Origin: a virus | Taxonomy: Duplodnaviria; Caudoviricetes | DNA length: 25,360 nt | Strand: one strand, 5' to 3' | IMG/VR virus record: IMGVR_UViG_3300037100_000035 | Coordinates: 1 to 25,360 of that record | Shown here: positions 15,963 through 25,360 of the stretch, piece after piece | Numbering within the stretch: the first letter of the stretch is position 1 | How the letters are laid out: every line of letters starts with the position of its first letter | The notes under the pieces: generated by a model | The model's input: only the letters and a program-made list of their open reading frames with translations | Told to the model about the DNA's origin: nothing | Databases searched by the model: none | Program-made: the position numbers and the translations under genes

Positions 15963-16583
15963 TCAGAAGGTCGGGGTTTCGCCGCGCCGCTTCTGTCCGG
16001 CGGCGAGGATCTGGGCGGCCAGCGCCTTGCCCGGGTCCTTCTCCTTCTCCCTTTCCGCGTCGGGGCCGACGTCGTAGCGCGGTTGCTGGGCCATCCGGCT
16101 TTTCAGGTCTGTGCGCGGCTTCTTCTCCGGCTCGGCCGCCGCGGGCTGGCCGGCGACAACGACGTTCAAAAGCTCGATCGCCGCCCTGGACGAGAGGTTG
16201 GTCTTGAACGCCAGATGGGCGGCGACGTCCTGGCGAACCCCGGCCGCGGCACAGGCAAAGATCCGCTCGCCACGGCTGTTGGCGCTTTCATCGTCCTCGT
16301 CGCTGCTGGCCCGGCGCTTGGCGCGGCGGCTCTTTTTGTCGTCCTCGTCATCATCCTTGTCGTCGGTCTCGGCCTTCTTGTCGTCCTCGTCGTCGTCGTC
16401 TTTGTCCTCGGCTTTTTGACTGTGACGGGCGTCCTTTTTGTCCTCGTCATCGTCCTTTTCGTCGTCGTCGTCCTTGGCCCGCTTGGCGCGCGCTTCCTCG
16501 TCCTTGTCGTCTTTCTCAACCTTGGCCTTGCGGCCCAGCAAGTGCGCGAACGTGGACCCGCCCGCCATCAGAGAGCTACGCAT
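15963..16583 (-). CDS. Highly charged scaffold-like protein (Nu3 position)
   Basis: Asp/Glu/Lys-rich low-complexity tract followed by ERIFACAAAG...AAHLAFKTNLS..AAIELL; between protease and decoration genes; AAGGA RBS. Confidence 0.7.
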   Translation of the reverse strand: MRSSLMAGGSTFAHLLGRKAKVEKDDKDEEARAKRAKDDDDEKDDDEDKKDARHSQKAEDKDDDDEDDKKAETDDKDDDEDDKKSRRAKRRASSDEDDESANSRGERIFACAAAGVRQDVAAHLAFKTNLSSRAAIELLNVVVAGQPAAAEPEKKPRTDLKSRMAQQPRYDVGPDAEREKEKDPGKALAAQILAAGQKRRGETPTF

Positions 16584-16609: not shown

Positions 16610-17494
16610 TTACGCCAGGGTGGCGATCAGATCGCGTAAGGCGGCGTCAGGCGACATCACGGCGTCGGCCAGACCAGCGGCAACACCCGCCTCGCCCAGA
16701 TACGTCGCGGCCTCGGTAGCGCGGACCTGATCGGCGGTCAGACCGCGGTTGCGTGCGACGGTCGAGACGAACAGCTCGCCCATCGCATCGACATCGGCTT
16801 GGTAGTTCTCAAGCGCCTCGGCACTCAGAGGCTTTTCAGGGTGGCCATCGGCCTTGCGCGCGCCGTAGTGGATGAAGGTGACTTCGATGCCGCCGGCCTT
16901 CAGCGCCCTGGAGAAATCGACGTGCATCGCGATGACGCCGATCGACCCGACACCGCCGGTGCGCGGCACAATGACGTGGTCAGCGGCGGAGGCAATCGCA
17001 TAGGCCGCGCTGTAGGCGGTCTCACTGAGGATGGCGACGATCGGCTTGGCGCCGCGCGCGGCATATATCTCGTCCACCAGATCGAACAGACCGGACACCT
17101 CGCCGCCGCCGCTGTCGCACTCCAGCACGATCGCTTTGGCCGCAGGATCCTCCAACGCGCCCTGGAATGCGCCGCGGATCGCATCGTAACCCTGCAGGCC
17201 GCTGTACGGCCGGATCGAGCCCAGCTTGGCGACCAGGGTGCCGCAGACCGGGATGATGGCCACGCCATTGAACAGGTCGTAACCGGGATCAGCCACTTCG
17301 CCCGCCCGGTCAAAGTCGTCGTCGTCGTTGCCATCGCGCCATGCCTGGATGCTCAGCGACTCACCGCTAAGCCGCGTGAGCGACACCACACCCATCCTCT
17401 CGGCGAGTGCGCCGATCACCACCTCCGCCCGACGCGGATGGATCGCCAGCGGCGTGTTGAACAACCGCTGTGAGAGGAACGGGAGGCGGTTCAT
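16610..17494 (-). CDS. S49 family prohead protease (lambda gpC-like)
   Basis: GVAIIPVCGTLV, DSGGGEV, AYSAAYAIASAAD, GVGSIGVI, FVSTVARNRG, AGLADAV. Confidence 0.94.
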   Translation of the reverse strand: MNRLPFLSQRLFNTPLAIHPRRAEVVIGALAERMGVVSLTRLSGESLSIQAWRDGNDDDDFDRAGEVADPGYDLFNGVAIIPVCGTLVAKLGSIRPYSGLQGYDAIRGAFQGALEDPAAKAIVLECDSGGGEVSGLFDLVDEIYAARGAKPIVAILSETAYSAAYAIASAADHVIVPRTGGVGSIGVIAMHVDFSRALKAGGIEVTFIHYGARKADGHPEKPLSAEALENYQADVDAMGELFVSTVARNRGLTADQVRATEAATYLGEAGVAAGLADAVMSPDAALRDLIATLA

Positions 17495-17509
17495 GTCGCC
17501 TCGTCTGAC

Positions 17510-17650
17510 TTATCCACATCCTGGTACGGCACTGCATCAGCCAGTAAGGATATATCTATACCGTTCTCCGCGCGCGCACGCGTCTTGTCGTTGCCCCGGT
17601 GTGACAACGATGATAGCCCCACCGGGGCAATCGTAGGGGAGTTTTCCACA
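17510..17650 (+). promoter_or_regulatory. Candidate replication origin: two DnaA boxes, AT-rich patch and inverted repeat
   Basis: TTATCCACA at 17510-17518 and TTTTCCACA at 17642-17650, both fitting TTWTNCACA in the same orientation. TAAGGATATATCTATA at 17545-17560. Perfect 11-bp inverted repeat TTGCCCCGGTG (17591-17601) / CACCGGGGCAA (17620-17630). Confidence 0.65.
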
Positions 17651-18162
17651 TGAAAGGTCAGATCACGCGCTTCCGCTCGCGCGCCGAGTCGCTGAAGCAG
17701 GATCAGGCCTTGCAGTTGCGGCAACTTGTGCTGCCATGGGAAAACGAGTCGCCGGTTGCCGTGCGTCAGTTGTTGAGCCTGATCGATCGTCATACCGCCG
17801 CCTCGAAAGGATGGACGTTTGTCATGTTGTCGCCGACCCAGCACCGCGCAGTCAGTCATTGGATCAGGCGCCATGCTAGGCGCCCTGGCGTATCCAGCGA
17901 TCTCTGGTCTGAGTTCTTTTGTCATCTCCGCATGGACACCGGCGAGATCGTCATGGATCGCAAGCAAATGATGGAGGCTGCCGAGGCGAGCAGCTCGCAT
18001 GTCTCGAACGCCCTTTCGGAGTTGGTGAAGATCGGTGCGTTGATCCGCCATCAGGAGGGTCGCGAGGTGCGTTGGTTCATGAACCCGAACATTGGAACGT
18101 GCCTGACGGGCAAAGCCCGCGAGGATGCCCAGAGGTCGGCGCCAACACTGCAAGTCGTGTGA
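17650..18162 (+). CDS. Putative plasmid-type replication protein (RepL-like winged helix-turn-helix)
   Basis: 170 aa, antisense to the operon, AGGGGAG RBS. wHTH-like GEIVMDRKQMMEAAEASSSHVSNALSELVKIGALIR followed by RWFMNPNIGT, resembling the Y/F-x-x-N-P motif of RepL-family proteins. Fits exactly between the portal stop and the protease start. Confidence 0.65.
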   Translation: MKGQITRFRSRAESLKQDQALQLRQLVLPWENESPVAVRQLLSLIDRHTAASKGWTFVMLSPTQHRAVSHWIRRHARRPGVSSDLWSEFFCHLRMDTGEIVMDRKQMMEAAEASSSHVSNALSELVKIGALIRHQEGREVRWFMNPNIGTCLTGKAREDAQRSAPTLQVV

Positions 18163-18166
18163 TCGC

Positions 18167-19855
18167 TTATGTCGTCTTCGGGGTTTCAGGCTTCTTCGCG
18201 GCCTGGACCGCCGTGTAGAGCCCGGCCCATTCCGGGCGCGGGATGCCAAGCTCGTCGAACTTCTTGATCTCGTAAGCGCGCTGCGAGAGCACTTCCTCGA
18301 AATCGACGCCTTGGGCTAAACACTCGCTCTCCAGCGTCGACAACCCGGCATCCATGCCGAGAATGGCCCCGGCCCGCTCATCGACCGGATTGACCCAGCC
18401 CTTCGGCGGGCCGACCCAGGTGCACTTGAGGAAGGCCGCGCGCCAGGCGGTGAACATCGCATGGCCTTCTTCGCTCGAGAGATCGAAGCCAACCGGCAGC
18501 GGCAGATCATCGGTCAGCGTCATTTCCTCGACCATCGCCGCGCGCACCGGGGTCGCGAACCCCTGAAAGAAATCGTGCGCCCGGCGGTCCATCGTCTTGC
18601 CGGCCTCGAGGGCGGCGGAGCGGGCGGAGCTATAGTTCACGTCGGACCAGTTGTTGCTCACCTGCTGCGCCGAGAGCCCAAGCCCCGAGGCGATGTTGCG
18701 CAGCATGGCATCCTCGAAGGGGGAAAAGTTGGTCGACGGCCGGGCGGCCTGGACCGTCTTGATCGACTCACCGGGATACATCTGCGCCAACCGCGCATCG
18801 CCCAGCATGATGCCGTTCTCGCGGTGCCAGAGCGCGCGGTCGGCCTGGTAGCCATTCAGGTTGACCCCGTCGAAGCCCTCGTCGCCGCCCATCGCCTCCT
18901 TGACCAGCTGCGGATCCAGCGGCGATTCCACATAAGCCGCGAAGATCGCATTGATGATCGCGGCATCCAGCTCGACGCCGTCGTATTTGACCAGCATCTT
19001 GAGCCGTTGCAGGACCGGCGTGAAAATCCCCGCCCCGCCGCGGTGCTGCCCGGCCCGCTGAGCCTCGTAGTAGTGCACGACGACGGGCCTGCCCCACGGG
19101 GTTTCGCGCGGCACCCGCTCCCACTGCACGCTCTGCGCGGCAGAAAACCAGTCGCCCTGGTGCGCCTTGCGGATGTGATAGGCCACGGCCGCGCCGCGCT
19201 GATTGACCTCGACCCCGCCGCGCAGGGCATGCTGATCAAACCGCAGCTGCGGGTTCGACAGACGGTCGGGATCGACCAGTTGCACGGTGGTATGATAGCG
19301 CGCCTTGCCCAGCGTCACCTCGTCGTCGCCCAGCCATTGCAGGACCGCCAGGGCATCGCCGTCGATCAGCGCATGGCGGAACGCCAGGTGCGCCATCTGC
19401 GAGAAGGTCTGGTTGCGCGTGGCATCGCACCAATGACCCTGATCGTTGGCCCAGACATTCCAGTGGCCATCGACGGCCGCGCCGAACTCCCGCGACCAGA
19501 CATGATCGAAACCGGGTTCGCCTGATTCGCGCTGCAGCCAGCGCCAGTCCGGCTTGCTGACCGGGCGGAGGTTGGCGCCGATCGCATTGTCGAGGATCCG
19601 CGTCACCGCGCCGGAGGCCCAGCCATCATTGCGCACGACGTCACGCACCCGGGCCACGATCCGGTCGCGGAACATGTTGAGCTCGCCGTCTGGCGACCAC
19701 AGATACGGCTGCCAGGCCGCCATGTGCGGCCCGTAGTTATCGGCGGCGTCGTACGGCGTGTTGCGGCCACCGGCCAGCGCCATCGAGCGGCGCGAGGGCG
19801 GCAGCGCGCGGCCGTCAGGACCGAGGATCCTGACCGGGGAGACGGTGCTGACCAT
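18167..19855 (-). CDS. Portal protein, lambda gpB family
   Basis: RVRDVVRNDGWASGAV, QLVDPDRLSNP, GGVEVNQRGAAVAYHI, GQHRG, WSDVNYSSARSA, GWVNPVDE. Confidence 0.96.
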   Translation of the reverse strand: MVSTVSPVRILGPDGRALPPSRRSMALAGGRNTPYDAADNYGPHMAAWQPYLWSPDGELNMFRDRIVARVRDVVRNDGWASGAVTRILDNAIGANLRPVSKPDWRWLQRESGEPGFDHVWSREFGAAVDGHWNVWANDQGHWCDATRNQTFSQMAHLAFRHALIDGDALAVLQWLGDDEVTLGKARYHTTVQLVDPDRLSNPQLRFDQHALRGGVEVNQRGAAVAYHIRKAHQGDWFSAAQSVQWERVPRETPWGRPVVVHYYEAQRAGQHRGGAGIFTPVLQRLKMLVKYDGVELDAAIINAIFAAYVESPLDPQLVKEAMGGDEGFDGVNLNGYQADRALWHRENGIMLGDARLAQMYPGESIKTVQAARPSTNFSPFEDAMLRNIASGLGLSAQQVSNNWSDVNYSSARSAALEAGKTMDRRAHDFFQGFATPVRAAMVEEMTLTDDLPLPVGFDLSSEEGHAMFTAWRAAFLKCTWVGPPKGWVNPVDERAGAILGMDAGLSTLESECLAQGVDFEEVLSQRAYEIKKFDELGIPRPEWAGLYTAVQAAKKPETPKTT

Positions 19856-24177: not shown

Positions 24178-24621
24178 ATGGTCGCCTACAGCTTCGACAA
24201 ACGGTTCGTGGGCCCGATAGCGACGGCAACCAAGCGGCAGACGATCCGTGGCGATCGCAAGCGCCATGCCCGCCCTGGTGAAGTCGTCCAGCTCTATACC
24301 GCCATGCGGACCCGGTATTGTCGCCCGATCGGCACGGCGCGGTGCGTGAACGTCGGCCGCATCACCCTGGATTTCACCGTGCCACGGGTGTCGTATGACT
24401 TGGGATCGGGCAAGATGATCATCTTCGCGCCTCGCCTCGATGCCTTCGCTCGCAGCGATGGGTTTGAGAACTGGGCGGAGATGCGGGCTTTCTGGGCGGC
24501 TCGCTACCCGGGCCTGAGCGTGTTCGAGGGATGGATTATCCAGTGGGCTGAGTTTTCGGTGGCCTCTGTGGTCGAAAACCGGCAAAACGAAAGCGAAATG
24601 CGAAAAAATTTCTGTGGCTAG
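24178..24621 (+). CDS. ASCH domain (PUA-like) protein
   Basis: ATG 24178 after GGAGG; MVAYSFDKRFVGPIATATKRQTIR (GxKxxTxR-like), PGEVVQLYTAMRT, FARSDGFENWAEMRAFW. Confidence 0.85.
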   Translation: MVAYSFDKRFVGPIATATKRQTIRGDRKRHARPGEVVQLYTAMRTRYCRPIGTARCVNVGRITLDFTVPRVSYDLGSGKMIIFAPRLDAFARSDGFENWAEMRAFWAARYPGLSVFEGWIIQWAEFSVASVVENRQNESEMRKNFCG

Positions 24622-24676
24622 AAAGGTAAAGGGCTCGCGCAATACCCCCGGTCGTTTTGTATGCAGAAAGGACCCG
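24600..24676 (-). other. Lambda-like cos (DNA packaging) site candidate: cosQ, cosN-like and I2-like segments
   Basis: Minus strand CGGGTCCTTTCTGCATACAAAACGACCGGGGGTATTGCGCGAGCCCTTTACCTTTCTAGCCACAGAAATTTTTTCG. GGGTCCT (24675-24669) equals lambda cosQ and is followed ~20 nt later by a CGGGG run and then a T-rich GAAATTTT tract. It is oriented toward Nu1/GpA-type terminase genes. Confidence 0.65.
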
Positions 24677-24686
24677 CGATGGTATG

Positions 24687-25128
24687 AAATGGCGGATTTC
24701 TGCCGTTTTTTGAGGTTTCGGGATGGCTAAAAAGGATGGTCAAATGCCCCAAAAATGGCGGAAATCCGCCGTTTTTTGGGTATGAAATACCGAATGAAAT
24801 CAATCTGCTGGTTTTCAGATCATATGAAATGAAATCACAATAAATGGCGGATTTCTGCGGTTTTTGGTTGGTTGTGCTAGATCAATGAATGGTATTGAAT
24901 GAAATCATATGGCCAAACGGGCGGATTTCCGCCGTTTTTTGGCACTAGATAGTTTCACAATGCCACAACTTGCCCATAAATGGCGGATTTCTGCGGATTA
25001 TGCTGGGCAATGCCACACAATCGGGCGGATTAGGCTTGCTGGCATTGTCAGAAAGTGGCAGATTTCTGCGGATTATTGGACCATTTTGCTAGATTGACTG
25101 CCCCGCAAATGGCAGATTTCCGCCATTT
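24687..25128. repeat. Array of seven dispersed 22-bp imperfect palindromes, consensus AAATGGCRGAWWTCYGCSGTTT
   Basis: Copies start at 24687, 24753, 24842, 24916, 24978, 25053 and 25107, with a half copy (GGCGGATT) near 25024. Gaps are 44, 67, 52, 40, 53 and 32 bp. Confidence 0.9.
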
Positions 25129-25133
25129 CTGCC

Positions 25134-25360
25134 CCCGGCTGTCCCGGTGGACCTGTCCCGGCTGGCCTCCCGGCTGTCCCGGTGGACCTGTCCCGGCTGG
25201 CCTCCTGGCTGTCCCGGTGGACCTGTCCCGGCTGCCTCCCGGCTGTCCCGGTGGACCTGTCCCGGCTGCCTCCCGGCTCTCCCGGTGGACCTGTCCCGGT
25301 GGACCTGTCCCGGCTGCCTCCCGGCTGTCCCGGTGGACCTGTCCCGGCTGGCCTCCCGGC
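25134..25360. repeat. Composite minisatellite, unit CCCGGCTGT-CCCGGTGGACCTGT-CCCGGCTG(G)CCT; continues past the window edge
   Basis: Units start at 25134 (35 bp), 25169 (35), 25204 (34), 25238 (34), 25272 (48, extra 14-mer), 25320 (35) and 25355 (partial). Confidence 0.97.

Follow-up and report, generated by a model that had tools for sequence, protein, structure and literature searches.

Why should a single gene run backwards through the head operon of a tailed phage, between two genes that normally adjoin each other? The question is raised by IMG/VR record IMGVR_UViG_3300037100_000035, a linear virus record (55% complete) of which we analysed the stretch of 25,360 nucleotides hereafter called the window. 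Its minus strand carries a lambda-like head module comprising gpA terminase, portal, S49 protease, gpD and gpE, followed by tail genes. The sole plus-strand gene of that module is an open reading frame (ORF) for a 170-residue protein lying between portal and protease. An earlier note on this DNA had proposed that the ORF, which it called RepL-like, and the spacer upstream form a self-contained mini-replicon. Both the solitary ORF and a 155-bp spacer holding two co-oriented DnaA boxes and an AT-rich patch were confirmed. We consider it very likely that the unit is a functional replicon, and assign a probability of roughly one half to the fuller reading, in which this replicon also maintains the phage genome as a plasmid.

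A predicted plasmid-type initiator gene

Homologues of the ORF, here named rep, point to plasmids. They were detected by tblastn on 18 of 72,556 plasmids, many of them 1.2-5.3 kb in length and mostly from Acetobacteraceae, and on pCP157_22, a circular plasmid of 1,211 bp, the rep homologue is the only annotated coding sequence. Circles of 1.8-4.0 kb account for 23 of the 91 related loci counted (L004-L094), and rep is the only recognisable gene on many small circles. Neighbouring ORFs (73 scanned) include MobA/MobL, Mob_Pre, relaxase, resolvase, ParA and PemK. The genomic context of homologues, which the earlier note had proposed to examine, is therefore one of tiny plasmids and small circles. 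The genes of pAPA01-050, pTF4.1, p1318-9 and pCP157_22 belong to the same protein family (37-43% identity), and pAPA01-050 and p1318-9 share the upstream layout of the window; unlike the window, these are free plasmids, and their genes are annotated as hypothetical or helix-turn-helix (HTH) proteins. The plasmid matches, the one basis for a host assignment, suggest an Acetobacteraceae host. Among the small elements, L019-L031 and L034 form a clade of mostly circular 2.2-2.5 kb molecules with rep as sole recognised gene and no relaxase match, in several of which GC-rich units of 40 or about 80 bp are repeated in tandem. Outside rep, the small circles and the phage loci have a single 23-bp match in common, so that no packaging site was found.

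The family is large. In total, 67 of 138 candidate homologues of the window protein were accepted, and a profile search recovered 631 clusters (50% identity) at E<=0.001 and 139 at 1e-30. The window protein had no Pfam match above cut-off and, specifically, no match to RepL (PF05732) at E<=1. PF05732 was matched by 4/60 homologues at E<=0.1 and 3/105 at E<=0.01, and a single homologue cleared its cut-off (22.3 vs 20.3). Language-model neighbours include clusters with 12-57% RepL members, and PHROGs returned weak replication-initiator matches alone (E 0.002-0.004). The RepL label of the earlier note could thus not be upheld, and the nearest tested system is instead the pAES4/pMARC2 Rep group. 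Alignment by HHalign of a 105-sequence profile with the pMARC2 Rep gave 93.5% (E 2e-7, 115 columns, about 21% identity), while a shallower profile gave 15% for this Rep and 55% for pAPA01-060. The REP region of pMARC2 sustained replication in Alphaproteobacteria (PMC3832669, available text), and the window ORF would be a plasmid-type Rep remotely related to a tested one.

The modelled structure (mean predicted local distance difference test, pLDDT, 75.8) has a winged helix at about residues 61-149 preceded by a helical N-terminal extension, in keeping with the small winged-helix initiators of the RepL type, although the fold is a generic one. A homodimer with its interface at residues 55-93 was predicted with a score of 0.62 (best control, 0.20); three runs shared at least 80% of contacts, with partner pLDDT of at least 76, and the same mark was reached by 20 of 30 solved homodimers and by 1 of 23 single chains. 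Dimerization of Rep through these residues is thus supported by modelling. A rolling-circle Rep was ruled out by the winged-helix fold; the invariant tyrosine of one clade is a tryptophan in the clade of the window. In a further homologue, P0053, the C-terminal part of Rep is fused to a T5orf172-type N-terminal domain, and a T5orf172 gene similar to that domain is present in phage record G001 (L260, 4928-5461).

An origin-like spacer and its predicted recognition by Rep

The spacer upstream of rep (17495-17649) has a GC content of 57%, compared with 66% for the S49 gene and 67% for the portal gene. Both window matches to the DnaA box consensus TTWTNCACA, at 17510 and 17642, lie in it on the plus strand; shuffled sequences contained 0.26 matches on average, and two anywhere in 2/100 cases. 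The perfect 11-bp inverted repeat noted previously was found again (17591-17601/17620-17630). Two imperfect palindromes of 17 bp lie here in tandem with a period of 23 bp, and the repeat consists of their outer halves (Table 1). This tandem pattern scored 18/24, which 1 in 100 shuffles equalled.

The arrangement is family-wide. Of the upstream regions, 84 were usable, 70 after removal of near-copies. They share a DnaA-like box followed by an AT patch and, in many cases, a (GC)n dyad; next come a -35-like hexamer, the palindrome pair, a G-rich site and TCCACATG. Tandem palindromes scoring >=19 of 24 were present in 56 of the 70 non-redundant regions and in 1 of 210 shuffles. The distal box occurred within 1 mismatch in 35 of 67 long upstream regions (0.9% of shuffles), so that DnaA boxes are indeed conserved next to homologues, and the proximal box lay within 2 mismatches of TTATCCACA in 43 of 67. 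TTGAC or TTTAC precedes palindrome 1 in many relatives, and also in pMARC2. An ATCTA-type patch recurs across the family by eye, and a 20-nt stretch of the window's AT patch is identical in locus L001. The distal box and the AT patch are the best conserved parts of the spacer. An exact distal box was found in 6 of 7 phage-borne regions but in 5 of 63 others, a contrast whose data points are not independent because five of the seven phage copies, including five of the six with the exact box, are close kin. No iteron array was present in the spacer, nor any Rep_3 match among the Pfam families listed, and no Rfam family was found in the cassette region. The general layout of a theta replicon is there: an initiator gene, adjoining predicted sites, an AT-rich patch and a DnaA box.

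Evidence that Rep reads the palindromes came from covariation across the 58 loci with a clear period-23 pair (12 were dropped). Of the 170 protein columns, residue 117, in the predicted recognition helix, was the one most strongly tied to a half-site base: histidine went with C at palindrome base 4 in 26/28 loci, asparagine with T in 10/12 and glutamate with G in 4/7. At residue 120, arginine was paired with G in 11/11 and glutamate or aspartate with C in 16/20. With shared descent taken into account on a tree, H117-C4 went in the same direction in 6.5 of 8 independent pairs on average and never in the opposite one (sign test, median p 0.016), and E/D120-C3 gave p 0.03; for N-T, E-G, T-A and H/R120-G the independent pairs were too few to reach 0.05. 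Several further columns likewise had high z. Since residue 117 covaries with base 4, Rep likely binds the two palindromes. That much of the self-contained replicon claimed earlier, a plasmid-type rep with origin-like DNA, stood up to plasmid homology, upstream layout and covariation.

Table 1. Features of the rep cassette and of the genes on either side (window positions)
Feature	Position	Strand	Basis or remark
S49 (gpC-type) head protease, downstream late gene	16610-17494	-	PF01343 E 1e-30; GAGG site kept at 17499-17502
Distal DnaA box TTATCCACA, left cassette edge	17510-17518	+	motif match
AT-rich patch, putative unwinding site	17544-17561 (about)		composition
(GC)n dyad between AT patch and promoter	17570-17583		many relatives have one (by eye)
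Predicted weak rep promoter, -35 TTGTCG, -10 about GATGAT	17585-17614	+	inferred from family layout
Palindrome 1 (TTGCCCCGGTGTGACAA), lying between -35 and -10, predicted Rep-dimer site	17591-17607		
Palindrome 2 (TAGCCCCACCGGGGCAA), predicted Rep-dimer site over transcription start	17614-17630		23 bp after palindrome 1
Ribosome-binding site (RBS) GGGGAG, then proximal DnaA box TTTTCCACA	17636-17650	+	box includes A of ATG
rep, winged-helix protein, predicted replication initiator	17650-18162	+	170 aa; residues 115-127 predicted to form the recognition helix
Lambda-family portal, upstream late gene	18167-19855	-	PF05136 E 1e-95

These features suggest how the module may work. A plasmid-derived unit of 653 bp, placed antisense between the portal and protease genes, would act as a DnaA-assisted theta replicon and keep the phage genome as a plasmid between lytic cycles. 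Rep dimers would bind the two palindromes bracketing the -10 box, which would both repress the rep promoter and mark the origin; host DnaA would then bind both boxes and the AT patch would open. No late-strand terminator was found in the cassette, and late read-through is therefore possible. With rep facing backwards, late transcription would reach the protease gene without raising Rep and would probably lower it, an antisense effect that we infer only.

Insertion, recurrence and maintenance in phages

As the earlier note had stated for lambdoid head modules, portal and gpC-type protease genes are normally adjacent: fewer than 150 bp separate them in 148 of the 153 related loci with both genes (near-copies included). 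Of the five wider gaps, that in the contig of L001 is the only one with a Rep. Because of this adjacency, the cassette, which measures 653 bp from distal DnaA box to rep stop and ends 4 bp from the portal stop, is by gene order an insertion into a normally adjacent pair. Four peat sequencing runs contained at least half of the window's sampled words. In run X1, maybe the source of the window itself, a single 4,888-bp contig covered 13508-18395, and in run X3, from a different study, two overlapping contigs covered the cassette with no differing letter; in both, depth over the cassette equalled that of the flanks. Since these contigs span it, the cassette is not an assembly chimera.

Similar cassettes recur in other phages. 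L001/L017 and L018 hold one in the same portal-protease gap, and in L179, whose portal is 89% identical, the genes flanking the L018 cassette are directly joined. The L001 cassette is bracketed by a 10-bp direct repeat of the protease start; in the window, a putative target duplication of 6 bp is no longer than expected by chance. L018 carries two different rep-origin cassettes stacked in one gap (775-1501 and 1746-2485) with small genes between them, the second having a more distant rep, an origin of its own and a 7-bp bracketing repeat. In unrelated phages, the cassette lies antisense between two ejection genes (G002), after the ejection genes and on their strand (G001), after terminase (G003), or antisense with its stop abutting that of a podovirus-type portal (L056). 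In all, 6 of 8 cassettes are antisense within virion genes, L001 and L017 being counted once.

On a quick tree of 82 rows (L012 omitted; L056, unlabelled, falls in a further group), the phage label required 4 changes, of which the starred branches force 3. This suggests uptake by phages of three or more Rep lineages, in most cases antisense within virion operons. The window Rep clusters with that of G001 and four proteins from contigs of 17-80 kb, adjoining the 2.2-2.5 kb circles. Five phage rows formed one branch (96) in a first tree that included one mis-framed row, and the position of G002 is open in the redone tree. The window protein had no tblastn match in 50,697 GenBank phages, two scans of viral contigs, one using the second L018 Rep and the other a plasmid-clade alignment, added no carriers, a box-to-ATG pattern scan found the L001 contig only, and a profile search of 52 related phage records returned one HTH-only match and no full Rep.

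The gene is maintained. Ratios of non-synonymous to synonymous substitution (dN/dS) were 0.12-0.22 for rep in 6/6 phage-phage pairs and 0.10-0.21 for head genes, showing that rep is under purifying selection. Relative to L001, dS was 1.16 for rep and 0.66-1.0 for the flanks; rep being about as diverged as its flanks, the cassette has long been resident in this phage lineage.

Several other features of these loci were recorded. A number of inserted units start with the first bases of the protease gene. In close relatives, the portal-protease gap also holds two small minus-strand genes, one with a weak DUF7685 match (L001, 5250-5660; L179, after portal; L018, 2435-2807), and in L182 (3196-4140) a different 0.9-kb ORF resembling, by eye, a GIY-YIG-type homing nuclease with no Pfam match. 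In the window, the protease gene is followed by an acidic low-complexity ORF (15963-16583), likely the scaffold part, which matches phrog_6382 and, weakly, a family of head maturation proteases. The low-GC stretch 24600-25360, upstream of the terminase genes, is possibly the packaging or control region; in three runs, its summed depth is raised and repeat-like joints occur. Run X2 also contains, on a 4,876-bp contig, another rep copy that has diverged but matches in length and in the RBS and box preceding the ATG.

Competing explanations and known systems

Virion genes and a plasmid-type initiator stand together in one record, as in phage-plasmids, but several observations weigh against plasmid maintenance of the phage genome or against the replicon itself. 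Carrier records are 16-88% complete and lack end repeats. Tyrosine integrases are present in 38 of 46 cassette-free relatives. On the other side, G001 (88% complete) has its own primase-type gene and no PF00589, PF07508 or PF00239 match, and no integrase was found in G000-G004, all incomplete and linear; with every carrier record incomplete, the lack of an integrase proves nothing. ParA (PF13614) and ParB (PF02195) were absent from 4/4 incomplete carrier records searched, which would be awkward for a plasmid of 40-65 kb. The rep promoter was missed by a promoter scan, and phage-copy palindromes are weaker (14-24, six of seven <=19; median 22 elsewhere, p 0.01, with the same close kinship among copies), which could be decay. 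L056 departs from the residue-to-base code, having H117 with A. The best fold matches (Z 9.1, root-mean-square deviation 2.5-3.9, 81-87 residues aligned) are generic winged helices, mostly regulators, so that the Rep assignment rests on context rather than structure; Foldseek gave nothing at E<=0.001, and neither fold search listed a plasmid Rep, which does not exclude one. Of the earlier expectation of Rep-like structural hits, only the winged-helix fold was borne out. The literature searched contained no functionally tested relative within easy sequence reach. In run X2, a contig is identical to the window along 8.7 kb, but 1,744 other bases stand in place of 17518-17649 (most of the origin), starting inside the distal DnaA box and ending at the rep ATG (first 30 bases without match in viral contigs or plasmids); a contig of run X4 departs from the window at the same base, and P0068 implies a different sequence ahead of the rep ATG. 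RNA runs yielded one 162-nt contig alone, in the portal end.

Part of this evidence would suit a selfish passenger, a mini-plasmid core recombined into the junction and kept by over-replicating its carrier, with no stable plasmid prophage. The minimal unit ends at the rep stop, direct repeats surround the L001 and second L018 cassettes, L018 has two cassettes stacked in a gap that also collects other small genes, the unit is rare among relatives (1/153 loci), its origin is replaced in X2, and its nearest non-phage kin are the 2.2-2.5 kb circles. Set against this, the cassette has been kept since a dS of about 1 under constraint equal to that of head genes, and one Rep group is found in unrelated phage types, which fits a benefit to phages. 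Nor did the contigs of four runs, an assembly form that drops rare molecules, contain an excised-circle joint or a depth step over the cassette; the raised copy number and 0.68-kb circle that might have been expected from the earlier note were likewise not seen in them, and of its proposed check of the record, a linear, incomplete contig and the lack of an integrase match are what was found. We regard the passenger as unlikely, and an auxiliary early origin as somewhat less probable still. The latter would raise copy number once the phage has infected or been induced, ahead of or alongside its own lytic replication genes, in a phage that still integrates. The wider family is largely integrase-bearing, the (incomplete) carriers lack par genes, and a strong DnaA box with weak operators would favour firing. 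However, G001 and G002 already possess replication genes (primase-type, G001 having its own; a weak replisome-organiser match), and an integrated prophage with an active origin should be a burden on its host.

Two explanations dispense with replication of the phage by the cassette. Phage Rep might be an incompatibility weapon, acting by repression or titration on the rep promoters of those resident mini-plasmids whose operators match: circles L030, L023 and L064 have half-sites similar to that of the window (TTGCCC), and closely related phages differ in specificity (the window and L018 have H117, L001 has N117). The distal DnaA box and AT patch, the parts of the spacer best conserved, are however needed in cis only, and a purely trans-acting repressor would not need the exact distal box kept in phage copies, making this improbable. 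An ordinary autoregulated regulator moron with no replication role is the least credible of all. The Pfam types among the 105 homologues (HTH_Crp_2 in 79, MarR in 18) speak for it, as do the fold matches, mostly regulators, but the gene is the sole annotated one of a 1.2-kb circular plasmid and the only recognisable one of many small circles, and DnaA boxes and AT patch are conserved alongside it.

We compared the preferred reading, a replicon maintaining the phage genome as a plasmid, with known systems, the cited papers being represented by the parts of their text available. Like the window, the pAES4/pMARC2 REP modules of Paracoccus lack iterons; they belong to small alphaproteobacterial plasmids, encode a MarR-like HTH Rep and have a long inverted repeat over the rep promoter (PMC3832669). 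pMARC2 and pAPA01-060 also have two tandem palindromes after TTGAC (TTGACA in pMARC2). Differences are that these Reps have 245-254 residues, not 170, that the palindrome period is 21 rather than 23 by eye, that identity is about 21% against 47-55% for the named members of the group, and that the modules are described on plasmids, with no DnaA box named for them in the available text (PMC3832669). Neither pMARC2 nor pAES4 was among the tblastn matches of the window protein. The module may thus operate as iteron-less theta replicons of the pMARC2 type do, while by sequence it lies outside both that group and RepL. RepL replicons such as pMOS6 and pLA6_12 likewise have a small solitary winged-helix initiator without parAB (PMC3832669, PMC6789725), but pMOS6 has 18-bp iterons and an IHF-like box instead of tandem palindromes.

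Among phages, a precedent is provided by the RepA mycobacteriophages Miko, Rachaly, Lokk, CRB1 and Jeeves, tailed phages with a plasmid-related initiator transcribed against the virion genes, some with little or no 3' spacer; their RepA has 320-350 residues, parABS is present, the integrase is replaced and the gene lies after the virion genes (PMC7157519). In the window, a 170-residue protein is encoded inside the head module and no par was found. Its setting also recalls the morons of lambdoid late operons, self-contained genes with their own promoter that sit, often reversed, between late genes where a stop and a start overlap. Here the cargo would instead be an origin and an initiator, with no late-strand terminator found. 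The movement of genes between phages and plasmids is treated in PMC10879196; the available parts of PMC4490671 and PMC10783043 contain nothing on this Rep family, and neither the family nor such a phage cassette was described in the literature searched (most subscription papers lay outside it). Phage-plasmids as such are known, but the initiator family, a readable binding code and repeated placement in virion operons appear undescribed.

A broader picture can be drawn tentatively, and we hold it to be possible rather than probable: integrating tailed phages of peat and soil Alphaproteobacteria may turn plasmid by gaining a 0.65-kb plug-in replicon that is silenced by late transcription, dodges incompatibility and is par-free. 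The unit would be among the smallest of its kind and placed backwards in virion operons, with incompatibility dodged by stacking or swapping origins and by two helix residues that change with the operator bases. Such phage-plasmids would be easily missed, because they have no par genes and their genes are annotated as hypothetical.

Taken together, the data point to a large initiator family whose origin can be defined and whose residue-to-base code can be tested, and suggest a simple, repeated route from plasmid to phage through a 0.65-kb insert in a virion operon. If the module replicates, Acetobacteraceae vectors would gain a very small replicon whose incompatibility can be swapped, and the module would show how phage-plasmids can arise from a family of integrating phages.

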